From the NCBI GenBank assembly GCA_965228855.1, contig CBDDIJ010000003.1, forward strand, positions 2,144,001 to 2,208,000: a stretch of DNA of 64,000 nt, read 5' to 3'. The notes under the pieces were generated by a model. The model saw only the letters and a program-made list of their open reading frames with translations. It did no database searches and had not been told where the DNA came from. Within the stretch, counting starts at the first letter, position 1; every line of letters begins with the position of its first letter. Both the position numbers and the translations under genes were made by a program. Shown here piece by piece: positions 10,686-24,685 of the stretch. Source of the DNA: Candidatus Obscuribacterales bacterium (GTDB taxonomy: Bacteria; Cyanobacteriota; Vampirovibrionia; Obscuribacterales; Obscuribacteraceae).

Positions 10686-13600
10686 TCAGTGGAAGTTTCG
10701 CGCTTCCATGTCCGGCTGCCCCTTGATGCGCGGCAACGGCTCACAGTGTGAAGCAATAATATTGGCGACACCAAACTCAAGTTGCAGTCGCCCCTCCACA
10801 CAAAGGAAAGACGGTCCTCGCAAAACGCGCCTGTATTGCTCGAAAACTTGCGGTCGAATAATAACATTTGCAAGACCGGTTTCGTCTTCCAGCGTCAAAA
10901 AAACAAATCCCTTTGCCGTCTCCGGTCGCTGCCTGCAAATAACAGCACCAGCAACTTTGATGATACTGCCATCCTCAGCTTTGGTGATACCAAGACAGGA
11001 ATGAATTTTGTTCTCGTCAGCCCATCTTCGATAGAACTCCATAGGATGAGCCGACGTAGACAAACCCGTCATTCGATAATCGTCACCAATCATCTCCAGC
11101 TTGCTGAGCCGTGGAAGCGTGATTTCTTTGCGTTCGAAGGCCTCTCGTTTTTCCTCCGGCAAATTCTCCATCAACGCGTCCAACAGTGGCGTCGGTCGCG
11201 CCCGACCGAGCCGCCCGAGTATCTCCCAGAGCGCTTCACGGCGTCCTGGATAAAGCGTTTCGAACGCACCTGCCTTAGCAAGAATTTTCAAATCCGCAGG
11301 TGCCAGACCACTCCGCTCAACTACATCTTCAAGCGACGTAAAATTGCCGCCTCTATTCCAGGACTTTTCCAAAATTTCCTTCGACTTCCTTCCCAATCCG
11401 TCGATAAAACGCAAACCTATGCGCAATGCCGGTTTCGTCATACTCCGGGCACGCTTACCTTTAACTATATTTGATACCGCCTGTGGTTCACCGGAAGGCA
11501 CCACATCGATTACATCATCTTCGACTTCGAGAGTGCAGTTCCAACTACTCTTAGCAAGATCGATCGGACGGACCTCTACACCATGCCGCAAAGCATCACG
11601 AATCAAAGTTCCCGGACTGTAAAACCCCATCGGCTGCGCGTTTAAAATTGCACAATAGAACTCCGGAGCATAATACAATTTCAGATGCGCCGAAGCATAA
11701 ACCAAAAGCGAAAACGACGCCGCGTGACTTTCTGGAAAGCCATAATTCGCAAACGCCTTCAACTGGTGAATTATGGTGGCAATCGCTTCCTCTGAAAAAT
11801 TATTCTTGCGCATGCCGGCACCAAGATCATCACACAAAGCCAACATTCGCTCCATAGAGCGTTTATGACTCATCACTCGCCGCAACTGGTCAGCCTGAGA
11901 AGGAGAAAATCCGGCTGCCACCACAGCTAGTTTCATTCCCTGTTCTTGAAAAAGTGGAACTCCAAGTGTTCGCGACAAAATCGGCTCCAATGAGGGATGC
12001 AAATACACGACTGGCTCCTCACCACGCCGCCTGCGTAGATACGGATGAATAATGTTTCCTTGAATCGGACCGGGTCGCACGATCGCAATTGAAACCACAA
12101 TGTCGTAAAAACATTTCGGCTTCAATCTCGGCAAGATATTCATTTGAGCACGCGACTCAACTTGAAATAAACCAATCGTGTCGGCATTCTGCAACATTTG
12201 ATAAACAGCCGGATCGTGCATATCAAGCGCACCAAGATCAATGTTGACGCCGCGAAACTGCTCGACGAGTTTCAACCCCTCCTGAATCATCATCAACATG
12301 CCGAGCCCAAGCAAATCAATTTTGATCATTCCAACAAGATCGATGTCATCTTTGTCCCATTGAATAACCGTACGCGCATGCATTGAAGCAGGCTCAATCG
12401 GAACTAGCTCACCAAGCGGTCTTCCGGAGAGCACAAAACCACCGACGTGAATCGAACGGTGACGCGGCAATTGATGCAACCCAGAAACAATCTTTAGCAA
12501 TAAACCAACTCGCCTGTCATTACGATCCAAACCGATGCGTTGCAATCCACCGTCGAGTAAACGTTGAACCGCACCAAGAGCTTCAGTATGCTCCCCCTCG
12601 GATGACAGTCGATCTGCCTGTTCTTGCGAAAAACCTAATACGCGAGCCGCGTCGCGCACCGCGGATTTACCGCGATAAGTAATAATCTCGCAAACCATCG
12701 CAGCATGCTCGCGACCATACTTTTCATAGACGTATTGCAAAACTGTCTCGCGCTCTTGATGCGCGATATCAAGGTCTATATCAGGAGGTTCATTGCGTCC
12801 CTCCGAAAGAAACCGCTCGAATAAAAGCTCCATGCCTATCGGATCAACCGCTGTAATCATCAAGCAATAGCAAACAGCAGAGTTTGCTGCCGACCCTCGG
12901 CCTTGCACCGCGATACCACGAGAGCGTGCGAAACGCACAATGTCCCACATTATAAGGAAGTATGGTCCCAGGTCTAGACCAGTAATCATGCTCAATTCAT
13001 GATCTATTTGTTTGATGTGTTTATCCGTCAAATCCGGATAACGAATGCGCGCCCCCTCCCAGACAAGTTTTTCTAGCAGCGCATTGTGATTGAGCGAATC
13101 GGGTTTCGCCTCGCTGGAACCAAGCCCCACAAGCTCCGGCGGCAATTGAAACACAGGCAATGGTGTGCGAAGAGAACCGAGTCTGAATTTGCAACGCTCC
13201 GCCACAATCAGTGAATTTCGAACTCCCGTCAAATTATGTCGCCACAAATGAGCCATCTCATCCGGCGACTTCATATACCAGCTTGCGTTCGGTCGCAAAC
13301 GTCGCCCTGCCTCGGCGAGCGTCACCTCATGCCGAAGACAGGTCAACACATCATGCACAATTCGTTTTTCCGGACGCGAATAATGCACGTTATTAGTCGC
13401 AACCCAGGGAATCTCACACTCATCGGCCAGCTCAAGAAGCTGTTTTGCAAGTATTTGCTCTTGCGTGATGTAGTGATCCCACATCTCTATGTAGAAACGA
13501 TCTCCAAAAACTTCCTTAAACTCGCGCGCACAAGCACGCGCACTTTCAACATCGCCTTTGGTAAGAGCTGACGGAATCCGTCCATGCGGACAACCTGACA

Positions 13601-13967
13601 GGACCACAAGTCCATCGCTACTTGCATACAAATCAGCACTCTGAACTCGCGGAGATCCACGCACGCAAGCAGAACGCGCCTTCGTAATTAAGCGACAAAT
13701 GTTTTTGTAGCCAGTCTCATCCGCAGCCAGCAAGATTACATGCGAGTGATCATCCAGCGTGAGTTCCGCGCCAATTATGGCATTCAACTCTAGCTCTCTC
13801 GCCGCAGTAGCGAAACGAACGATTCCTCCCATATCGTCGTGATCGGTCAATGCCAGCGCTGCGAGGCCAATCTCCTTAGCCCTAACGGCGAGTTCCTCAG
13901 GATTGCTCGCGCCATCTAAAAGAGAAAAAGCAGAATGACAATGCAGCTCAGCGTATTCGTATCGCAA
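10686..13967 (-). CDS. dnaE2: Error-prone DNA polymerase III alpha subunit DnaE2 (ImuC)
   Basis: PHP YAELHCHSAFSLLDG; QGRGSAANS; PDIDLD; YGFPESHAASF; OB fold RQRPETAKG; C-terminal ARNFH matching the DnaE2 [S/A]R[D/N]F[H/R] tail. Confidence 0.96.
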   Translation of the reverse strand: MRYEYAELHCHSAFSLLDGASNPEELAVRAKEIGLAALALTDHDDMGGIVRFATAARELELNAIIGAELTLDDHSHVILLAADETGYKNICRLITKARSACVRGSPRVQSADLYASSDGLVVLSGCPHGRIPSALTKGDVESARACAREFKEVFGDRFYIEMWDHYITQEQILAKQLLELADECEIPWVATNNVHYSRPEKRIVHDVLTCLRHEVTLAEAGRRLRPNASWYMKSPDEMAHLWRHNLTGVRNSLIVAERCKFRLGSLRTPLPVFQLPPELVGLGSSEAKPDSLNHNALLEKLVWEGARIRYPDLTDKHIKQIDHELSMITGLDLGPYFLIMWDIVRFARSRGIAVQGRGSAANSAVCYCLMITAVDPIGMELLFERFLSEGRNEPPDIDLDIAHQERETVLQYVYEKYGREHAAMVCEIITYRGKSAVRDAARVLGFSQEQADRLSSEGEHTEALGAVQRLLDGGLQRIGLDRNDRRVGLLLKIVSGLHQLPRHRSIHVGGFVLSGRPLGELVPIEPASMHARTVIQWDKDDIDLVGMIKIDLLGLGMLMMIQEGLKLVEQFRGVNIDLGALDMHDPAVYQMLQNADTIGLFQVESRAQMNILPRLKPKCFYDIVVSIAIVRPGPIQGNIIHPYLRRRRGEEPVVYLHPSLEPILSRTLGVPLFQEQGMKLAVVAAGFSPSQADQLRRVMSHKRSMERMLALCDDLGAGMRKNNFSEEAIATIIHQLKAFANYGFPESHAASFSLLVYASAHLKLYYAPEFYCAILNAQPMGFYSPGTLIRDALRHGVEVRPIDLAKSSWNCTLEVEDDVIDVVPSGEPQAVSNIVKGKRARSMTKPALRIGLRFIDGLGRKSKEILEKSWNRGGNFTSLEDVVERSGLAPADLKILAKAGAFETLYPGRREALWEILGRLGRARPTPLLDALMENLPEEKREAFERKEITLPRLSKLEMIGDDYRMTGLSTSAHPMEFYRRWADENKIHSCLGITKAEDGSIIKVAGAVICRQRPETAKGFVFLTLEDETGLANVIIRPQVFEQYRRVLRGPSFLCVEGRLQLEFGVANIIASHCEPLPRIKGQPDMEARNFH

Positions 13968-14128: not shown

Positions 14129-14157
14129 ACATTACCATACAAATGTATGCACGTCAA
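14129..14157 (-). promoter_or_regulatory. Sigma70 promoter of dnaE2 (TTGACG-N17-TAATGT) with palindromic operator CATAC-N4-GTATG in the spacer
   Basis: Minus strand TTGACG TGCATACATTTGTATGG TAATGT; palindrome at 14136-14149; same architecture upstream of imuA. Confidence 0.75.
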
Positions 14158-14396
14158 TAATCACCAAATGCCCTGGATCACATTAAAGTCACGCAGCCAC
14201 ATTTATATGGAAGGCGATGGAGAGGCAAATTACTGAATTTCGTAATTTCCCCACTTGTCATAGGGTTGTTCCTGACGTAAAAATAAGGCACTTGCTCGCA
14301 ATATCAAAACCTCGACCCCCATGCAAAAGGCACCCTAGCCAAGTTGCACAAAAGCGCGCGCGTTCCCATCACGCCGTCGTCGTAGGAGTTACTATA

Positions 14397-15926
14397 ATGA
14401 CCGAAAAATTAGACGCCCAACGGGTTGCAGACGATGCCGCTACGGCATTGCAAACCACCGATGATGCCACTTCAAGGACGATGCTCCAGCACGTAAATGA
14501 AGACCTGCGCGCACTCTCGGAACCCGAAAGAAATTACGTCGCAAACGACCTGGCGCTGAAAGGTTTACTGCCGGATCTGGCTATTGAAACTGGTCTCGTA
14601 AGCGAAGACAAATTTGCAACCAAAGAAGACCTGGCACGAGTTGCAGCCGATGAAGGCAACTCGACAGTCAACGGCATGGCAGCAAAATTTCTGACCGACA
14701 ACTTCTCGGCCCTCGGCGGCGGTCCCCGCACCGACACGAATGCAGACTACGTCAAAGGCTTCGATATGCGCTACGATCTTGCGCTCGAAACCGCGAACGT
14801 AAAACGTGAATTTGGCGGATTGCTGGATCTGTACAAAAAGCAAAATCCGAACGACGCTGACATCCAGGCAAGAGACGGTCTGCAAGCAAATGATATTGAT
14901 GCACTTTTGAGTAAACCGGAGGCGCTCTCGCCAGCACAATCCGATGCGCTCAAAACAATGAAAAACAACTTCGACTATATGAAGACTCCCCGCGGTGTCT
15001 GGACACTGACCGACTGGACGACTCCAAGGGTCAACGAAGAAAGCATCGGTGATTTCGTTAATACGGCAGTGCCTCTAGGCATGGCTGAACAACTCAAAAT
15101 TGCCGAAGCCGAGAAATCAAAACAAGCAGGTTTAGAAGAAGGCGCTCGTCAAGCCCAACAAGAAAGACAAACGCCACCTGAAAGCAAGCCAGCAGAGGAA
15201 ACGCCTGCGACTCCTGACGCACCTCCTGCGACTCCTGACGCACCTCCTGCGACTCCTGACGCACCGCCTACGACTCCGGATGCACCTCCTGCGACTCCGG
15301 ATGCACCTCCTGCGACTCCGGACGCACCACCTGCGACTCCTGACGCACCACCTGCGACTCCAGACGCACCACCTGCGACTCCAGACGCACCACCTGCGAC
15401 TCCTGACGCACCTCCTGCAACTCCTGACGCACCTCCTGCGACTCCTGACGCACCACCTGCGACTCCGGACGCACCTCCCGCGTCACCGGACGCATCGCCC
15501 GTCTCACCAGACGCACCACCTGCAACACCAGATCAACCCGCACCGCCCGCAACACCAGACGCACCTCCGGCTCTACCGGAAGCACCCACGCCTGATGCGC
15601 CCCCCGCATCGCCGGAGGCACCGGGAGATCAAACCACACCACCGGAAAATATGGAACGAGATAAAGTTACCGACAAAGAATACACAGTCGTCGCTGGAGA
15701 CAACCTGTGGAAGATCGCCCGCGCGCACCTGACCGAATTGGAAGGCAAACGCCCCAATAATGCTGACGTCCTCAAACTCGTCAACGAAATCGTTGCGCGC
15801 AACAACATCAAAAATCCGAACTTGATCTATCCGGATCAAAAGTTCATCATCCCTGGTCCGGCGGCGGCTAATCCCGAAGCGTCACCAACACCGGTTCCAG
15901 CCCCCTCGGCACCGCCGGAGTCGTAA
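14397..15926 (+). CDS. LysM-domain protein with a long Pro/Ala/Thr/Asp heptad repeat linker
   Basis: C-terminal YTVVAGDNLWKIA..NNIKNPNLIYPDQKFIIP LysM; AGGAG upstream of ATG 14397. Confidence 0.88.
   Translation: MTEKLDAQRVADDAATALQTTDDATSRTMLQHVNEDLRALSEPERNYVANDLALKGLLPDLAIETGLVSEDKFATKEDLARVAADEGNSTVNGMAAKFLTDNFSALGGGPRTDTNADYVKGFDMRYDLALETANVKREFGGLLDLYKKQNPNDADIQARDGLQANDIDALLSKPEALSPAQSDALKTMKNNFDYMKTPRGVWTLTDWTTPRVNEESIGDFVNTAVPLGMAEQLKIAEAEKSKQAGLEEGARQAQQERQTPPESKPAEETPATPDAPPATPDAPPATPDAPPTTPDAPPATPDAPPATPDAPPATPDAPPATPDAPPATPDAPPATPDAPPATPDAPPATPDAPPATPDAPPASPDASPVSPDAPPATPDQPAPPATPDAPPALPEAPTPDAPPASPEAPGDQTTPPENMERDKVTDKEYTVVAGDNLWKIARAHLTELEGKRPNNADVLKLVNEIVARNNIKNPNLIYPDQKFIIPGPAAANPEASPTPVPAPSAPPES
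15204..15536 (+). repeat. 21-bp coding tandem repeat (PPATPDA), 13 near-perfect plus about 3 degenerate units
   Basis: cc(a/t)cctgcgactcc(t/a/g)ga(c/t)gca units from 15204 to 15473, degenerate to about 15536. Confidence 0.95.
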
Positions 15927-16026
15927 AAATTCCGGTTCCCACCGCATTAAATCTCTTTGGGAAGCAGCCGTTCAACACAGTTCCGACTGCACGTAAAACG
16001 CTCATTCGCGTAGCAACCCAAACCAA

Positions 16027-16064
16027 GCCGAAATCGCCTCGAAGAAATTCGGGGCGTTTTTGGC
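16027..16064 (+). terminator. Probable intrinsic terminator downstream of the LysM gene
   Basis: CGCCTCGAA-GAAA-TTCGGGGCG stem-loop followed by TTTTT. Confidence 0.6.
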
Positions 16065-16509
16065 AAAACCTCGTTAACTCACAAGCAAGCAAAGTCTTTA
16101 GAAGCCCAGGAGCTTAATTTCGTCTCACCAAAGGCAGCTAGTCCTGGGATACAACCCCAGCAAGCAATCAACAGTCGAATAGCGCATTAATCACGGATGC
16201 GGGAAATACCGCCAAGAGACTTGCCAGCCATCCGAAAGTTTGGTGCCGGCAAGAGCGGTTAGTCCTGATGTGGACAGAAAAGCCCCAAGACTAGCCGAAT
16301 GTTAGACCTCATAACTGTTCCAACTTAAATGTATATCGAATTCCGCTACCACCGGAAGTGATTTCGCTTCGAATAACTTTGTTACGTTTTCCGAAGCCCA
16401 CCAATTGTAGTTTTCCGGGTTCGATCCATATAATCGTTCCCAACGTCTTCGGTATCCCAGTTTCTGGACGTAAATTTCAAACCAAATAAGATTGATGGTG
16501 GAGGACTCC

Positions 16510-17070
16510 ATGCAACTCAAACGTACTTCGACTCTTTTCTCAATTGCTCTGGCTCTCGTCGCAACAGCAATTTTTGATGCTCCGGCTTCGGCTCAGAAAG
16601 CGGCTTCCCCTTCCACAGTGAAGATCGGCTACTTCAACCTCACTATGGTTAAAGCCAAAACCCCGGCAGGCGATGCAGACGCATTGAAGAACCAAGCCGA
16701 AGGTCAACTTCGTCGCGATATCGAGACCGGTCAAAAGGCAATCGAAAAAGCACGCGCCGACAAAAAGACCGAAGCTGAAATCAAAGATATCGTCAAACAA
16801 GTTCAAACAGAACTGGCTGCCAAACAGCAAGCACTGTTCCAACTCGTTCAATCAGCAACTCTTCAAGACACACAAAGACTGGTTCAAGCAGTCAACGTCG
16901 TCGCCAAGAAAAAAGGTCTCGACCTGATCGTTGATGCCAACGCAGTTTACGCTGGTGGCAAAGAAGTTCTCGACAAAGGCATCGACGTCACCAACGACGT
17001 AATCGAAGCAGTCAACCCGATGGCAGCAATCGACCGCGCCGCAGAATCGAAGAAAGAAGCTTCCGAGTAG
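16510..17070 (+). CDS. skp: OmpH/Skp-family periplasmic outer-membrane protein chaperone
   Basis: Signal peptide ending ASA; KIGYFN; coiled coil; VAKKKGLDLIVD..DVTNDVI; RBS GGAGGA. Confidence 0.85.
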   Translation: MQLKRTSTLFSIALALVATAIFDAPASAQKAASPSTVKIGYFNLTMVKAKTPAGDADALKNQAEGQLRRDIETGQKAIEKARADKKTEAEIKDIVKQVQTELAAKQQALFQLVQSATLQDTQRLVQAVNVVAKKKGLDLIVDANAVYAGGKEVLDKGIDVTNDVIEAVNPMAAIDRAAESKKEASE

Positions 17071-17100
17071 TCGTTCTTCAACTCAGCTGAATAGGTTATC

Positions 17101-17133
17101 GAAAGGGCCGGTTTTACCGGTCCTTTCATTTTT
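17101..17133 (+). terminator. Intrinsic terminator after skp
   Basis: GAAAGGGCCGGT-TTT-ACCGGTCCTTTC followed by ATTTTT. Confidence 0.75.
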
Positions 17134-17175
17134 GTCGTTGTGCTACCTTATATAGACAGAAACAGCGAGGCGCGA

Positions 17176-17661
17176 ATGACCAGTCCATACGAAGAAGATA
17201 CGATTCTCAAGGTCGGCGACCCTGCACCACAATTTTCGCTGGAATCATATCCCGCGGGTCAGGTGAGTCTGAAAGACTTTTTTGGGAAACAGAATGTGAT
17301 CCTCGCGTTCTACCCCAAAGACAATACGCCAGGATGTACAAAGGAAATGTGCACCTTCAGCGAGCGCCGTCAGGAATTCGCAAGTGCTAATACTGTTATT
17401 CTTGGTGTCTCCACGGACGATACCACTAGTCACAAAGACTTCGCTACTCAATACGGTTTGCTAAATCAATTGCTGTCCGACACCTCCCGCGAAACCGGCA
17501 TGGCTTATGGCGCGGTGCGAGGCGATCGCGTTATGGCAGATCGGGTTCTTTTCGTCATCGACAAGAAAGGTATGATTCGGCACGTTCATTCCGGACAGCC
17601 TGATTTCGATGAGCTGTTGGAAATTGTCACAGCATTGGAAAAACTGCAAGCGGATAGTTAG
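17176..17661 (+). CDS. bcp: Peroxiredoxin, Bcp/PrxQ family
   Basis: LKVGDPAPQF, FYPKDNTPGCTKEMC (PxxxTxxC-xxxx-C), ILGVSTD, RVLFVID. Confidence 0.9.
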   Translation: MTSPYEEDTILKVGDPAPQFSLESYPAGQVSLKDFFGKQNVILAFYPKDNTPGCTKEMCTFSERRQEFASANTVILGVSTDDTTSHKDFATQYGLLNQLLSDTSRETGMAYGAVRGDRVMADRVLFVIDKKGMIRHVHSGQPDFDELLEIVTALEKLQADS

Positions 17662-17666
17662 CGTTC

Positions 17667-20246
17667 TTGAGTAACTCTGACCTCGAATTTGAGAACTATG
17701 AAATCGTCTCCAAGCTTGGAGAGGGTGGATTCAGCAACGTCTACCTGGCGATCCAAAAAACATTGGATCGAAGAGTTGTTCTGAAGGTTTTAAAAACAAA
17801 CTCAATAAACAACCGCGCGATCGTTAGATTCCAAAACGAAGCCAAAGCACTTAGCAAACTCAACCATCCCAATATCGCCTCGGTCTATGATTTTGGGCAG
17901 TCGTCAAAGGGAGATCTCTATCTCACCATCGAGTTTGTCGACGGCGACGATTTATCCACCCTGATTCAACAGCAAGAATTCATCGAAGTCGATGATGCGA
18001 TCGACATCATAATTCAGCTATGTAAAGCCCTCGATCATGCTCACCAACTCGGAATTATCCATCGTGACATCAAGCCGGCCAACGTAGTAATAACCCACTC
18101 GAGCACACCCGAAGGTGAGGCTGACATCAGCCGGCTGCACGCGAAACTGCTGGACTTCGGAATATCGAAATTGACCGAGGACGCCACCGAATTTAGTGCC
18201 GTTACGGTCGGCTCGAATCTGCTCGGTTCACCGCTGTTCATGAGCCCCGAGCAGTGTGAAGGAAAACCGATTTCGAAGTTCAGCGACCACTATTCACTTG
18301 GATGTGTTTTCTACAATATGCTCTGCGGGCAGCCTCCGTTTTTAGGCGAAACAGCGCTGTTGACCATGATGATGCATCAAAACGAACAAGCCGAACCATT
18401 ATCGAAAGTATCATCGCAGGATCTTCCCGACGGGATTGAAAAGATAGTCAACAAATTGATGTCTAAAAATCCAGGTGAGCGATACGCCTGCCTCTTGCAG
18501 GTCATCGAAGAACTTGAAAGTTTACGCACGCCGCCAGTCGAAAGTGAAGATACAGCCGACCCGGAGCCGCCTACTGCGCAGCGCAAATTCAGCAAGGCAA
18601 TGTTAGTCGGAGTAACATCAGTTCTTCTGTCTGTCAGTGCCGTTGCGCTCTCGTTGTTGTTCTTAAATATGAAAAATGACCTTTCATCTTCTGGCACCGA
18701 GTCTGGTGACAAAGCTACTGACTCGCTTTTTCCGCCACTTCCGACGACAGAGGAATCTTTCCAGAGAAAAGCTCAATCTCAGAAGGATTTCGAATATATC
18801 AATAAGCTTGCGGGCGACGAAGATATGCCTGAGATAGCTAGAAATCCCAAAATTCAGGTTGTGAACATTCCCAAAACGGGTATCACCGGCAATGCCCTGA
18901 GAGCTCTAAAATCTCTGAAATTAATGGTTCTAGATGTTTCTTACTGCAAATACCTGGGATCGTTAGACTTTTTAGAAGATCTTCCCTGGATTCAAATTCT
19001 TGATCTACATGATACCGAGATTGGTGACAAAGATTTGGCTTATGTGAGCAAACTCAAGAATCTCAAAGGGTTGAGAATTGATGGCTGTAAGCTCACTAAT
19101 AGCGGGTTGAGGCAACTTTTGAAGTCAGACTCGCTTGTTAAAGTTATGCTGCCTACCAACGCGGCGGTCGATCTACAAACTATCAAGAAGTTACATGAGG
19201 AACTTCCGCAATGCTCATTTCTTCCACGTTATAAGAAGAGCAAGATCGACTTGCGCACCGAGCAGCTCGGCATAAGCGATCCGTACAAATTAGCGATTGA
19301 GCTCAACAAAACTCCTCATTTGAGACAAACATCAACTTGCTACCTGAAAAATTTAGCCACCATATGCCAGATCCTCCTCATATCCGGCAAATCGGAAGAG
19401 GCAGGGAAGAACATCAAGCGACTCACGACGCTGAGCTTGCAGAGCGGAAATCAGAATGCAATTGCAACGGCGTATCACACTCGTGCCGAGTATGAAGCGA
19501 ATCATGGAAATTTTGCCGAGGCATACTATCTAAGCGAAAAATCACTTCCATTGTTTCGTGCCACAGTGCAGGTAGGTGATCCGGCGATTGTATCTGTCTA
19601 TCATGCATTCAACATCCTTTTATCGAGAATTGGCCACAAAGAAAGAGCAGTGACCGTCGCCGAGGAAGGACTTAAATTATTTGAGCAGTATCATGAACCC
19701 AATCTTGACCGCTCAGTAAAGCAGCATCCTTCGTCCGCGCCAATGGACGCGGTCGCAATGCGTGAGATGGTCGGTCTCTACTACTTATACGATAAACATA
19801 ACAGGGCAAAGGCAGCACCGCTGTTTGCAAAAAATATTGAGCTCCTCAACTGGCTGACCCCCAGTGCGAATGTGCTAAAGGCCAGAAATCTTATCGAATT
19901 AGCTCATAGCGAGACAAATAAAGACAAACGAATGCGACACTATTTAGAGGGAATGACTATCGTCAAAGATCTGAATTTCCCCGACGAAGATAATGCCATA
20001 ACGAGCTACTGTGATGCCGCTTTTAGCCTGGCTCAGCTCTATGACGAACAGTCAAATTCAGAGGCGGCAATCATCGAATTGCATCGAGCGCTCGCAGCGT
20101 TGCAACGCCAGAAAACTCTCGACACCTCTCGCGACGAGGTCTATCGCAAGGCACTCTTTCAATACCTCTCGAAGGCAGGAAAAACAGCAGAGGCTCACTC
20201 TGCCGCGGAAGAATTCGAGCATCGTTATCACAAGAAACCAATTTAG
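17667..20246 (+). CDS. Hanks-type Ser/Thr kinase with TM helix, LRR and TPR-like C-terminal domains
   Basis: LGEGGFSNVY, VLKVL, IHRDIKPAN, DFG, GSPLFMSPE; one TM helix; LRRs (LDVSYC, LDLHDTEIGD); helical TPR-like tail. Confidence 0.92.
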   Translation: MSNSDLEFENYEIVSKLGEGGFSNVYLAIQKTLDRRVVLKVLKTNSINNRAIVRFQNEAKALSKLNHPNIASVYDFGQSSKGDLYLTIEFVDGDDLSTLIQQQEFIEVDDAIDIIIQLCKALDHAHQLGIIHRDIKPANVVITHSSTPEGEADISRLHAKLLDFGISKLTEDATEFSAVTVGSNLLGSPLFMSPEQCEGKPISKFSDHYSLGCVFYNMLCGQPPFLGETALLTMMMHQNEQAEPLSKVSSQDLPDGIEKIVNKLMSKNPGERYACLLQVIEELESLRTPPVESEDTADPEPPTAQRKFSKAMLVGVTSVLLSVSAVALSLLFLNMKNDLSSSGTESGDKATDSLFPPLPTTEESFQRKAQSQKDFEYINKLAGDEDMPEIARNPKIQVVNIPKTGITGNALRALKSLKLMVLDVSYCKYLGSLDFLEDLPWIQILDLHDTEIGDKDLAYVSKLKNLKGLRIDGCKLTNSGLRQLLKSDSLVKVMLPTNAAVDLQTIKKLHEELPQCSFLPRYKKSKIDLRTEQLGISDPYKLAIELNKTPHLRQTSTCYLKNLATICQILLISGKSEEAGKNIKRLTTLSLQSGNQNAIATAYHTRAEYEANHGNFAEAYYLSEKSLPLFRATVQVGDPAIVSVYHAFNILLSRIGHKERAVTVAEEGLKLFEQYHEPNLDRSVKQHPSSAPMDAVAMREMVGLYYLYDKHNRAKAAPLFAKNIELLNWLTPSANVLKARNLIELAHSETNKDKRMRHYLEGMTIVKDLNFPDEDNAITSYCDAAFSLAQLYDEQSNSEAAIIELHRALAALQRQKTLDTSRDEVYRKALFQYLSKAGKTAEAHSAAEEFEHRYHKKPI

Positions 20247-20369
20247 CCGGTGGAGACGTTCTTGTCGCTATCAATACCGGAAGCTCGCTCGTCGCTTCCA
20301 TTACCAGTGGTATCGCCAACGGTGCATAAAGGCAACGCGGCATTCAACCGGCGCATGGCACGCTCGGAA

Positions 20370-21593
20370 CTACACCCAGCTCCACTGCATGCGTTGAGGA
20401 ACGCGCATGTTTAGCTCTTCAAGAGCCTCATCAAGACTGATGTCTTTCTTCACGCAAAGTCCCAGCAATTCCACCGCTTGTGTTCGAGGAAGATACCCGA
20501 AGCGCATCAGAGTTTGAACCCGAAGGGTTTTGTAGAGGACTTCCTCAGTGAGTAACTTAGAGTCTAGAAGCAGCTTGCCAATTTTGACGGCACTATCGGT
20601 ATTTGCCATCGCCTGTTCCAATTCCTCGCGTTTGCAAACCTCAGACTCTACGAGCAGGTCTCCCAGCCTCGTGTTTGAATCCGGCTTGTGCAGCAATTGA
20701 TATTCCGCGATTGTTGCGTACACATCGCTGTTCTCTTTGATTACTCGGCGAAGCGCTTCTGCCGCTTGGAAAGGCTTCAACGTACCCTTATTTATACTGC
20801 CCTGCAATGTCTCAGCCGATTCAAGCTGGTCTCGAGTAATAATGCCTCTTTCGACAAGAATCTGGCCAAAGGGCTTTTTCTTGAAAAGCTCTATTTCCAG
20901 ACACTCAGCCATCTCCTCCATCGTCACGAGGTTGGCCATCTCGAACAGCTCGCCAACGCGAGTAGTCTTAGCGTCAGGGTGAATGAAAAAGCCCAGCTCG
21001 AATAAAGCCTGCTCGAAGGAGACTTCGCGTTTTCTCGCATAACGCAGTCCCTGCGCGGCTTTATCCTTATCAAGACCGGTCTCTCTCATCATGTATACAG
21101 CACTCAGCGCCGTATACAGCTGTTTGGTAGTCAGTTTGTCATCCGTGAGCAGCCACTGGCCGATCATCATGCCGGCGTCTGTTGAGTGCTTAAGCGCATT
21201 GCCCAGGTCTTCCCGACTCAGCATCTTGGCGGACATCAGCAGCTGAGTAAGTTCGTTCGTAGCAGATACGACAATATGAGTCTGCTGGTGCAGCTTTTCA
21301 ATCGACTTGACTGCGTCTTCAAGAGAAACTTTGTTCTGTATCACCAGGCGAACAGCTCTGATGGCCATATCTAGCGTTATCTTTTTCTCTTCTACTTGCT
21401 TGAGCGCCTTTATGGGCGCTTCTAGTTTATCGGCTTCCGTAATTCCAGCGTCTACTAATGCTTCCTGGAGTTCGAGGTCTAGCTCGGCAGCGAGCTTGGT
21501 TCCGGCTTCAACTTGCTCGCGAGTTAAGACACCACTGCCCAGGAGTATTGGCACGAGCTGGGAGGACTGAGTATCTTTACTGGATGTGGTCAC
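20370..21593 (-). CDS. Protein built of repeated MshEN-like (GSPII N-terminal, c-di-GMP-binding) motifs, with no ATPase domain
   Basis: RVGELFEMANLV, PFGQILVERGII, RLGDLLVESEVC, KIGKLLLDSKLL, MIGQWLLTDDKL and further degenerate copies; probable GTG start at 21593. Confidence 0.75.
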   Translation of the reverse strand: MTTSSKDTQSSQLVPILLGSGVLTREQVEAGTKLAAELDLELQEALVDAGITEADKLEAPIKALKQVEEKKITLDMAIRAVRLVIQNKVSLEDAVKSIEKLHQQTHIVVSATNELTQLLMSAKMLSREDLGNALKHSTDAGMMIGQWLLTDDKLTTKQLYTALSAVYMMRETGLDKDKAAQGLRYARKREVSFEQALFELGFFIHPDAKTTRVGELFEMANLVTMEEMAECLEIELFKKKPFGQILVERGIITRDQLESAETLQGSINKGTLKPFQAAEALRRVIKENSDVYATIAEYQLLHKPDSNTRLGDLLVESEVCKREELEQAMANTDSAVKIGKLLLDSKLLTEEVLYKTLRVQTLMRFGYLPRTQAVELLGLCVKKDISLDEALEELNMRVPQRMQWSWV

Positions 21594-21943
21594 CTTTGCA
21601 CCTTGATAAAAAAATGCGTTTTCTCGGTCCATCTCGCCATGGACACTATTCAAATGTTACCCGAAATTTGGGTTTCACATCCTTTGTTTGAACACGATTT
21701 TTATCCGGTATATGCAATCGGGCTCGGCTTGGACAGAATTCTGCAAGGGAGCCGAAGCAGCACCGCCGCACTTTATCGGTCCGGTCCTGGTCCCCAAGTC
21801 GGTCCGGACCTGGCGCCCGAGTCGATCGAATTCGGGTCTGCCAGTCGATCCAACGTTCGTCAGTGGTAGGGTCTTGGCAGTTGTTATCGCCGCGTCAGTA
21901 TTAATGTCCGTGTCGGTCTTTGCCGTTTCGCGTCGTGCTCATC

Positions 21944-23578
21944 TCAGTCATATTCGCCTTCGATAAACCAGGTTTGACACTCGTGGTCGTAAACAAGCAG
22001 CATCATCAGCATCAGATCACTGGCTGCCGGCTGAACCAGAGCCGTGTAATACGACTTGCGCACAGGCTCTTCCCACCACAACCCAGAAAGGCATTCCGGG
22101 TTGGTGATGCTTTGAATTCTGTACAGCCGCCCCTCATAGGTAAAGGCCTGCGGCTTTGTCTTGTGAACCTCCATAAAAACGGCGATCGGACTCGGGTGCC
22201 TTTTCAGAACCAATCCGGAAACTAGCCCGGCGGTGCCTGTTTTCTCTTTGACGTAGTCAACGGCAATCGCGAGCCGCTTCCTTTCGGAAGAGACCACCGA
22301 CAACTCCCTTTTGCCGGAATTCCTTTTGCCTTTTGACGACCGCGTTTGCGTCTCCGTCTGCTTGCGCGACGAGATGGCTGGTTGCCATTCTCCGGCTCGG
22401 TCGGGTGTGTATTGATCAACGGGTACGGGCTTGACGAGAACATTGTCACCTCCATATCGAGTGTTTAACTTTTGAACAAGCAGCAAAAATGATTCTGAGA
22501 AAACGCCGTTCTCTTCGCTTGGAATAATGCCGCTGGCATCGTTAGACAGCACCGGCATTTGCTTGAATACTTCAATCGAAGTCCTGGAGACAATCAGGCG
22601 GAGACTGGTAAACTCCTTTTCAAGCCGTTTGTTCTCAATTGATAATCGCAATACTTCCAGTAAAAATTTGCTCTGGCTCGAAGGACGAATTAATCGAACG
22701 GTTCGCTCATCAAACAAATCCTCATCCGAATAAAAACAGACTACAATTTCCTCCGCACATAACCCCTTTTCTATCAATAATTGGGTGAGCCGATCGAGCA
22801 TTGACTTAATCACAAAAAGCGTGTCGTTGAGAGCTTCTATGGGACCACCCATATCAACGTAACACTGAAACTCGGTTTCAATTTTCGGCAAAGAGGGCTG
22901 ACGTGCGTCAATACCAGAAGCCAGGCTGTAGGCAAGCAATCCTTCTGATTCAAATCGCGATGCCACCTCATCAACGGGCAATGCGGTCAACTGACCCATT
23001 CGTTCGATTCCTAGCCCATAGAAGATCTCTCTGAGCTCACTTTTGATTGGCAGAAAATCAATTGAAAGCGTTGACAGAAACTGCCGATCCTTGCCATGCT
23101 CCACTATGTGCCAGCGACATTTTTTATTTTGCGCCGCCACAATTGCAGCAAAAGCACTGTCAGCCATTCCGATACTACATTCGGTGTATCCTTTCCGACT
23201 TACAAATTTCAAAACGTCTCTTGCGAAATAATTTTCACCTCCTAGAAGTGAGAGTCCATCGGCATCTATCAGGAAAGTTCCGACCTGACATGCCGACACT
23301 CGCGGAGAACAAGCCACCAATTCAGCAAGCATTTCCTTCTGCGCTTTTATATAAATGTGTTCGTCGTAATCCCTCCAAATTAGTTCAGAACAAACAGCTC
23401 TTGCTTCAGAGAGTCTCATGCCGACTCTGACGTATTTCCGCTCAGCCTCAGCCGAACAAAGTAAAACCCTTGATCGTCCGCCGATTAAAACAAATGGCTT
23501 TCCCTTAAGCTCAGGCTCATGCTTTTGCTGTACGACGATCTGGAATCTGGGGATGCGTAAACAAGCGATTCGGGACAT
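21944..23578 (-). CDS. imuB: ImuB, catalytically inactive Y-family polymerase accessory protein
   Basis: RIACLRIPRF, VGMRLSEARAVC, SPRV, degenerate LIDADG, GIERMGQL, clamp-like QMPVL, C-terminal PEC..GLWW..WFIEGEYD. Confidence 0.88.
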   Translation of the reverse strand: MSRIACLRIPRFQIVVQQKHEPELKGKPFVLIGGRSRVLLCSAEAERKYVRVGMRLSEARAVCSELIWRDYDEHIYIKAQKEMLAELVACSPRVSACQVGTFLIDADGLSLLGGENYFARDVLKFVSRKGYTECSIGMADSAFAAIVAAQNKKCRWHIVEHGKDRQFLSTLSIDFLPIKSELREIFYGLGIERMGQLTALPVDEVASRFESEGLLAYSLASGIDARQPSLPKIETEFQCYVDMGGPIEALNDTLFVIKSMLDRLTQLLIEKGLCAEEIVVCFYSDEDLFDERTVRLIRPSSQSKFLLEVLRLSIENKRLEKEFTSLRLIVSRTSIEVFKQMPVLSNDASGIIPSEENGVFSESFLLLVQKLNTRYGGDNVLVKPVPVDQYTPDRAGEWQPAISSRKQTETQTRSSKGKRNSGKRELSVVSSERKRLAIAVDYVKEKTGTAGLVSGLVLKRHPSPIAVFMEVHKTKPQAFTYEGRLYRIQSITNPECLSGLWWEEPVRKSYYTALVQPAASDLMLMMLLVYDHECQTWFIEGEYD

Positions 23579-24380
23579 GAGTATTCAACCTGGTTTCCAT
23601 ATTCTGTGTCATACCATCACGAGAAATAAATCCTTGAATGGCAGGTGTAATCATGGCAATGCCATTCATACCGTTTTCATAACTAATCGGAGCCGTCCAT
23701 TTGAATTGCATACTGGTATGAGTACCCCAGCCACTACCTGTGGTGCCATTCAAATTGGCTCTAAAATGCTGATCCCTCAAAATAATCAATGCAGACTTTG
23801 AACGTTCCAGAGCTCTTTTCAAGCGCGCAAAGGTTCTATCCGAAAGAGATATCGATGCGCCCATATCAAATACAATGGCATCAAAAACGGCGCTTCGAAT
23901 CAATTGTTCTACCACCCAACAGGCTTCCAGACGGATGTCCTTTTTTCGGGCAACGTTGTTTTCAGCTTCATCCGAATTGTCCTGCTGAGCGAGATTTTCA
24001 CTGACTCTCACCGCAAAGAATTCACCGTTAGTGTGGCTCTTTCGTTGCATCATATTCAGTGGCACAGGTCCACACAAACCTTCGCGCACGAAAGCCCAAT
24101 CCCCAGCAACCAAGCGGCTGAAAGTGTCTACATATGCTACATTCAACCCGCTTGCGCACCAGTAAGTTACTGCCCCTCTAAGCAGCGTAGACTTGCCGGA
24201 AGAAGAAATTCCCGTCCATTCACTGATTTGTCGTCTGGCAAACCCGGAAGCGATACCAGCATCGATATCACGAATCCCGGTACGCAGGATTTTGTCACCA
24301 TCTGCCCCGGTGAGCCATTTCCCGGGAAACAGCTGCTCGAGTTGTTGTTTTAAGACGGCTACATTTGCATTCATGCGCAT
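23517..24380 (-). CDS. imuA: ImuA, RecA-like mutagenesis cassette protein
   Basis: LRTGIRDID, Walker A GISSSGKST, VAYVD, FDAIVFD; overlaps the imuB start. Confidence 0.8.
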   Translation of the reverse strand: MRMNANVAVLKQQLEQLFPGKWLTGADGDKILRTGIRDIDAGIASGFARRQISEWTGISSSGKSTLLRGAVTYWCASGLNVAYVDTFSRLVAGDWAFVREGLCGPVPLNMMQRKSHTNGEFFAVRVSENLAQQDNSDEAENNVARKKDIRLEACWVVEQLIRSAVFDAIVFDMGASISLSDRTFARLKRALERSKSALIILRDQHFRANLNGTTGSGWGTHTSMQFKWTAPISYENGMNGIAMITPAIQGFISRDGMTQNMETRLNTHVPNRLFTHPQIPDRRTAKA

Positions 24381-24656
24381 CACCACTTCTGCCTGACAAG
24401 AAGTCAGCCAGTCCAAAGCCACCACCAACTAAGCAAGCACACAGACTTACAACGACGTTTTGGCGCCGCCTCCACGGCGTTAGAACCTCGAAGCAATTCC
24501 AACGACTTCTTCCGTCGCCTACAAGCAATTAGTAGACAGCAAACCGCGCAAGAAACGCGAGACTTTCACCCCGCCTTCCACACACAGCCTCCGCCTGAGC
24601 AAATCTCTCAGCCGCAGCAGCTGCTACTAACCCCTACTTTTACAACCAGTAAAACC

Positions 24657-24685
24657 ATTCTACCCATACATCCGTATGGCGTCAA
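24657..24685 (-). promoter_or_regulatory. Sigma70 promoter of imuA-imuB (TTGACG-N17-TAGAAT) with palindromic operator CCATAC-N4-GTATGG in the spacer
   Basis: Minus strand TTGACG CCATACGGATGTATGGG TAGAAT; palindrome at 24664-24679. Confidence 0.8.

Follow-up and report, generated by a model that had tools for sequence, protein, structure and literature searches.

CATAC-N4-GTATG, a probable LexA operator of Obscuribacterales shared by the separate dnaE2 and imuA-imuB promoters

The LexA boxes closest to the element considered here are those of cyanobacteria, with the consensus AGTACWNWTGTACT, and of Bacillus subtilis, with the consensus CGAAC-N4-GTTCG, as given in PMC3091678. The GAAC-N4-GTTC and GTAC-N4-GTWC boxes named in the initial annotation of the present DNA are about right when set beside these consensus sequences. 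The imuABC translesion cassette is almost always controlled by LexA, and split cassettes with a box for each part are known from Mycobacterium tuberculosis (PMC3901139). Here we describe a 64-kb stretch of DNA (the window) from a Candidatus Obscuribacterales bacterium (assembly GCA_965228855.1, contig CBDDIJ010000003.1, positions 2,144,001 to 2,208,000), in which the palindrome CATAC-N4-GTATG lies in the promoter spacers of dnaE2 and of the separate imuA-imuB genes. Judged from sequence, it is highly probable that this palindrome serves the single LexA of Obscuribacterales as its operator, and the box very likely governs a predicted translesion-centred regulon that does not include recA.

The Obscuribacterales box resembles the cyanobacterial form AGTAC-N4-GTACT in being a 14-bp palindrome with 5-bp half-sites, a 4-nt spacer, and an inner TAC-N4-GTA. 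Both occur in the same phylum and at lexA and ssb, and in the cyanobacterial table two predicted sites, both from Microcystis, have CATAC as one of their arms (PMC3091678). The outer bases differ, being CA/TG here and AG/CT there; in 83 distinct sites collected from relatives the outer half-site positions are C in 78 and A in 80, unlike the cyanobacterial half-sites AGTAC and AGAAC. PMC3091678 names recA as a target in most cyanobacteria, which is not the case in Obscuribacterales, and imuABC was not found in cyanobacteria according to a 2012 review (PMC3901139), whereas a dnaE2 match is present in 54 of the 61 genomes of this order. The B. subtilis box shares the geometry and a half-site of the form C..AC (PMC3091678), with GA changed to AT at half-site positions 2-3, and the matrix built from the relatives reads ATAC rather than the GAAC of Firmicutes and Actinobacteria. 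The box, very likely a LexA operator, is one or two bases per half-site away from both the cyanobacterial and the Bacillus boxes. In its arrangement the locus recalls M. tuberculosis, where imuA'B and dnaE2 also stand at separate promoters, each with a box (PMC3901139, as above). The box itself is different, and Obscuribacterales mix split and intact cassettes within one family, the dnaE2 box following the split.

Conservation was assessed as the best site at ≤1 mismatch between -350 and +30 of the gene start, with the genome under study included in all gene sets except those of lexA and recA. The lexA loci were the best 80 of 94, chosen by helix peptides and mostly with Obscuribacterales or Melainabacteria titles, and 74 of the 80 carry the box (80/80 at ≤2 mismatches). 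In this genome the lexA promoter has TATAC-TTAC-GTATG 63 nt upstream. The box is found before ssb at 27/28 loci, so that the sites which the initial annotation had proposed to look for upstream of lexA and ssb are present at both genes. It also precedes imuA at 30/30 loci (best 30 of 57 genomes with a match) and at 6/6 further loci (36/36), a 264-aa gene at 29/30 (best 30 of 41), mostly in tandem, a radical SAM gene at 26/30, and a DinG-like helicase gene at 18/21. The background is 40 of the 5278 genes of this genome (0.8%).

For dnaE2 the count is 20/30 (best 30 of 54), and it depends on how the cassette is organized. Eight of these loci are intact operons with imuB alongside and 22 are split; the box precedes dnaE2 in 20/22 split loci and in 0/8 intact operons. 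In the intact operons the box precedes imuA in 7/7 readable cases, the eighth stopping at a contig edge. The dnaE2 box thus tracks the split of the cassette, and selection therefore appears to keep a box before every promoter that drives it.

In the window, minus-strand positions 14157-14129 upstream of dnaE2 read TTGACG-TGCATACATTTGTATGG-TAATGT and minus-strand positions 24685-24657 upstream of imuA read TTGACG-CCATACGGATGTATGGG-TAGAAT, both with a 17-nt spacer. The palindromes, likely LexA boxes, occupy 14136..14149 and 24665..24678, and the sequences, places, and spacer lengths given in the initial annotation were all confirmed on re-reading. Its description of both promoters as sigma70-type stands for imuA-imuB (24657..24685, minus strand), which the consensus promoter scanner detected with 10/12 matches, and less so for dnaE2 (14129..14157, minus strand), a promoter predicted from its sequence that fell below the threshold of the scanner, with a -10 (TAATGT) that matches 3/6. 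The terminal TG of the box, at -15/-14, would give this promoter an extended -10. At ≤1 mismatch these are the only two matches to the palindrome in the window. The mean by chance is 0.66, and at least two matches arose in 18/100 shuffles of the window; the count alone is not beyond chance, though both sites are perfect. An Rfam scan of the window gave no match.

The whole genome (8.2 Mb, about 51% G+C) contains nine perfect sites, compared with about two expected from the half-site frequencies. Other spacers from 0 to 15 yield one to seven perfect sites genome-wide, seven of them with a spacer of 11, and 41 genomes summed hold 259 sites against 95 for a reversed control. The excess in raw numbers is thus a mild one; the counts are not relied on, and the evidence consists of position and conservation. 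The intergenic perfect sites lie at dnaE2, imuA, ssb, the radical SAM gene (PA0069/Rv2578c-like, best model matches under the cut-off), and the divergent region between ku and a glycogen-debranching gene. A matrix was made from the 83 sites of relatives, leaving out this genome, a near twin, and all lexA sites; both arms are conserved in it and the central 4 nt vary. When the genome was scanned with this matrix, the top ten sites (23.8-17.3 bits) were all intergenic and the following matches mostly coding. Nine of the ten are repair-type or lexA promoters: imuA, the radical SAM gene, ku, dnaE2, ssb (two boxes), a Rad3/DinG-like helicase gene, lexA, and the 264-aa gene. The tenth is flanked by a Cap4-TPR-PIN gene and one of 257 aa.

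This last box (contig C3 1656150) is a strong one. The promoter that holds it reads TTGATG-16 nt-TACAAT, with a defence-type gene (Cap4-nuclease/TPR/GreAB/PIN) on one side and the 257-aa gene on the other, and the place is possibly an SOS-linked defence locus. Sites with one mismatch occur here at radA and dprA, neither of which is among the 54 matrix matches of at least 11 bits. At dprA (contig C5 224895) the ATG of the low-scoring site opens the reading frame, and this site may be a leaderless promoter that mimics the box. The 264-aa gene (contig C5 1386634-1387428) is divergent from xseA and is matched in 41/41 genomes of the order. Its product has no Pfam or NCBIfam match; that it is a PD-(D/E)XK-like nuclease, as Atlas features (0.93-0.95) suggest, is a lead only.

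The likely reader of the box is encoded by the one gene in the genome (contig C5 842697-843383) that matches TIGR00498 over the cut-off, and no second LexA-family match was found at E 0.001. The protein has the domains PF01726 and PF00717. In an alignment with solved LexA, A115-G116 fall on the AG cleavage site, S148 on the serine, and K186 on the lysine, and all are invariant in 28 homologues, so that the repressor looks intact, with cleavage site and catalytic dyad kept. The helix III region reads LKNRMTIHQH here compared with FRSPNAAEEH in the solved LexA chains, and N40, R41, M42, T43, H45, Q46, and H47 are invariant in the 28 homologues. This predicted recognition helix, L(K/R)NRMTVHQH, is specific to the lineage. 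In the proposed mechanism, a LexA dimer would read the two 5-bp half-sites, covering the promoter and blocking RNA polymerase. RecA on single-stranded DNA would then trigger self-cleavage of LexA and release the promoters, as the background in PMC3091678 suggests. ImuA-ImuB-DnaE2, SSB, the helicase, the radical SAM protein, and the nuclease-like protein would be made upon DNA damage and lexA would subsequently be re-repressed, with recA presumably supplied outside the LexA circuit.

The class to which this order belongs, which we take to be Vampirovibrionia, offers a comparison between LexA clades. An unbiased count of palindromic dyads was made upstream of 71 lexA loci (6 not parsed) from families of this class, designated f1 to f11, of which f1 has the Obscuribacterales box. 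ATAC-N4-GTAT is the top dyad at lexA in f1 (12/15), and both f2 genomes have TATAC-TTAT-GTATG. The sister family f9, with the helix VSSTSTIH(F/Y/H)H, has CGAA-N6-TTCG at lexA (10/15); this Bacillus-like box, in its GAA-N6-TTC form, is also found at recA (4/5 by pattern, the fifth by eye). In f8, TGTAC-N4-GTACA lies upstream of a distant 193-aa LexA-like protein at 9/9 loci. The dyad changes with the LexA clade, which supports LexA as the reader. With the lexA promoter, the damage-response genes, and the 5-4-5 geometry, the LexA-box interpretation offered in the initial annotation is supported.

A number of observations weigh against this interpretation or narrow it. The genomes are related and the gene sets overlap, and the counts are therefore not independent events. 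At ≤1 mismatch the box is absent from recA (0/30 of the best 30 of 44; 400 nt), contrary to the expectation in the initial annotation, and from uvrA (0/30; 450 nt), and even at ≤2 mismatches this genome has none at recA, uvrA, uvrB, ruvA, or dinB. Both recA and uvrA were rejected as members, their best matrix scores being 5.0 and 7.0 bits compared with at least 17.3 for members, and a canonical SOS regulon with recA and uvrA under the box is not what is seen. The claim that the box defines the DNA-damage regulon of the lineage accordingly holds for lexA, ssb, and other damage-response genes; because recA and uvrA lack it, the box does not account for the whole response. At ku it is present in only 7/30 loci, and ku was rejected as a core member. 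Four of the nine perfect sites fall within open frames. Two split dnaE2 loci have no box nearby: in one a site with one mismatch lies farther off, at -427, and in the other 4.3 kb hold none. At lexA the left half-site TATAC lies in the predicted -10 (TATACT, 17 nt after TAGACA; the reading TACTAT was dropped, as TATACT suits the 17-nt spacing), and half of the conservation of this site therefore needs no repressor. Only the right arm, conserved at 0.91-1.0, is free evidence. Finally, f4 has CATA-N6-TATG at lexA in 8/14 loci with the helix GITKGTLQYH; as a different helix goes with the same box, helix and box are not one to one.

The absence of the box from recA and uvrA, and its presence at lexA in two LexA clades with different helices, would also fit binding by another DNA-damage regulator, such as an XRE/HTH or WYL protein, that controls lexA as well. 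LexA-independent damage regulators do exist, Myxococcus DdiA and mycobacterial PafBC being reported examples. Against such a regulator it can be said that in f9 and f8 another LexA clade goes with another dyad at lexA, that the box geometry fits known LexA boxes (PMC3091678), and that the genome has no second LexA-family match; no candidate turned up, and no systematic search was made. We regard this explanation as unlikely. A LexA that binds the box and has been repurposed, so that its regulon is not damage-inducible, would agree with recA lying outside the regulon and has a precedent in one cyanobacterium, Synechocystis (PMC3091678). The intact cleavage site and catalytic dyad and the identity of the targets, which are translesion and repair genes, make a repurposed LexA quite improbable here.

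The position of the box bears on both repression and promoter architecture. It overlaps the predicted core promoters, its offset from the best -10 ranging between -20 and 0, as expected of a repressor site. Relative to this -10, the box starts 15 nt ahead in 18/20 distinct sites at dnaE2 and in 15/30 at imuA, 14 nt ahead in 15/25 at the radical SAM gene, and 19-20 nt ahead in 22/26 at ssb, where it overlaps the -35; at lexA, 59/71 boxes begin right at the -10. The ATG of the right arm is in frame and open in 19/74 sites at lexA, 0/30 at imuA, and 0/20 at dnaE2, and a leaderless-ATG reading was rejected for these three genes; it opens the reading frames of the helicase and dprA in this genome and may serve as the start codon there. 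It is very unlikely that promoter elements (-35, extended -10, -10, or leaderless ATG) gave rise to the palindrome as a by-product, or that it is the site of an alternative sigma factor or activator. Some of its bases do belong to TTGACA at ssb and to the -10 at lexA and at the helicase gene, and its ATG opens the two reading frames just named. Its offset to the -10, however, differs between genes by as much as 20 nt, which no sigma element could do; the arms are conserved around a variable 4-nt centre, the ATG is in frame and open at few of the sites counted above, and the box occurs at 0.8% of genes. In lexA promoters the TAC directly before the box, and hence before the predicted -10, is as conserved as the box (1.0, 1.0, 0.91) and recurs at helicase promoters. 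At some lexA loci another box precedes the first by 20 nt.

The recA promoters of the order have features of their own. TTTTAAT occurs in 21/30 (best 30 of 44), about 24 nt before GCTATAAT. A TTTTATACCC lies farther off, and ATATAC half-sites occur singly, scattered over these regions. This pattern could possibly reflect a second regulator or a different promoter type. The TTTAAT element gave no gene-linked match in this genome or in 30 uvrA promoters, with a weak search pattern that missed the genome's own recA too, and a second regulon built on it was set aside.

The gene names given to the split cassette in the initial annotation were found to hold. The dnaE2 (imuC) gene (10686..13967, minus strand) encodes an error-prone DNA polymerase of 1093 aa that matches NF004225 at 1203.6 bits (cut-off 939). 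The imuB-like gene (21944..23578, minus strand), which overlaps the end of imuA, encodes a 544-aa Y-family polymerase homologue with an IMS domain (PF00817) over the cut-off and Pol IV models below theirs. The imuA-like, RecA-like gene (23517..24380, minus strand) has its first ATG at 24380 in a frame that is open to 24428. The 23517-24428 frame matches ImuA, RadB, and RecA models weakly (ImuA at E 0.006, far below the cut-off), and its product matches RecA of a relative at BLASTP E 2e-5; because the ImuA match is weak, the gene is called imuA for its position and its likeness to RecA. Unrelated genes, including LysM-like, peroxiredoxin-like, Ser/Thr kinase, and MshEN-type c-di-GMP-binding genes, fill about 8 kb (14217..21653) between imuA-imuB and dnaE2. 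A second, distant imuA-imuB-dnaE2 cassette (44% identity) without the box, in which the reading frame breaks close to the 3' end of dnaE2, is found on contig C4 (182 kb), where the G+C content jumps from 29% to about 65%. This contig is probably a contaminant or chimeric sequence.

Changed LexA motifs are known from other phyla. In the studies on Balneolaeota (PMC7739468), Bacteroidetes (PMC8565304), and Francisella (PMC13148647), the motifs TTACACATATTTTWTACATA, GGA-N5-TCC, and GTG-N11-CAC, respectively, govern translesion polymerases and a radical SAM protein, as the Obscuribacterales box appears to do, and in Balneolaeota a helicase as well. The motifs themselves are unlike the Obscuribacterales box, and they were tested by electrophoretic mobility shift assay whereas the present box is known from sequence alone. 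The string ATAC is absent from the main text of these three papers, as far as that text was available. The literature searched, on LexA motifs and on LexA in Melainabacteria, Obscuribacter, and Vampirovibrionia, with motif databases and most subscription journals outside its scope, contains no account of the box. The statement in the initial annotation that it was not aware of a description therefore finds agreement, and we are fairly confident that the box is undescribed.

A quick LexA tree (midpoint root, no outgroup, 5 short or mis-started rows dropped) groups f1 with f2, f4 with f10, f9 with f11, and f8 with f3; f1 and f2 join f9 with a support of 86 and f4 stands apart at 92. The proposal that ATAC-N4-GTAT is a third variant of an ancestral box is suggested by likeness, and this tree cannot order the changes. 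In five f4 genomes a relaxed pattern gave no clear repair regulon beyond lexA among the 16 of 25 sites viewed. In five f9 genomes, where covariation was sought at dnaE2, the radical SAM gene, ssb, and the 264-aa gene, no dnaE2 passed the cut-off, and for the other genes clear orthologues were lacking or neither kind of box was present. At f4 lexA, CATA-N6-TATG lies in the -35/-10 spacer, a layout like that of the two promoters in the window, and the gene looks leaderless (TAnTAT-ATAAGT-ATG). The 193-aa LexA-like proteins of f8 and f3 have overlapping GGAAC/TGTAC-N4-GTACA boxes upstream, near the cyanobacterial box. A lexA match was found in only 3/34 f6 genomes searched, most of them 99% complete. 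As a tentative and rather doubtful joint reading, Vampirovibrionia might hold, among their living members, a series in which the specificity of LexA changes while the 5-4-5 scaffold stays the same, with the f9, Obscuribacterales/f4, and f8 boxes as its members. Under this reading two unlike helices (NRMTVHQH and TKGTLQYH) would read the same box, the Obscuribacterales switch would have come with the loss of recA from the regulon and its passing to the TTTTAAT element, and the gene of the unstudied PD-(D/E)XK-like nuclease would have been recruited, with its tandem boxes, into the SOS core.

It is to be expected that phyla studied little so far yield new LexA motifs, and the surprise is therefore moderate. 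The analysis provides a predicted regulon for an uncultured, non-photosynthetic order next to the cyanobacteria, and it flags a conserved nuclease-like gene, present in 41/41 genomes, as a likely damage-response gene. Since the box is near the cyanobacterial and Bacillus forms and relatives in the class carry boxes of those forms, the joint change of LexA and its operator would be testable with few proteins.

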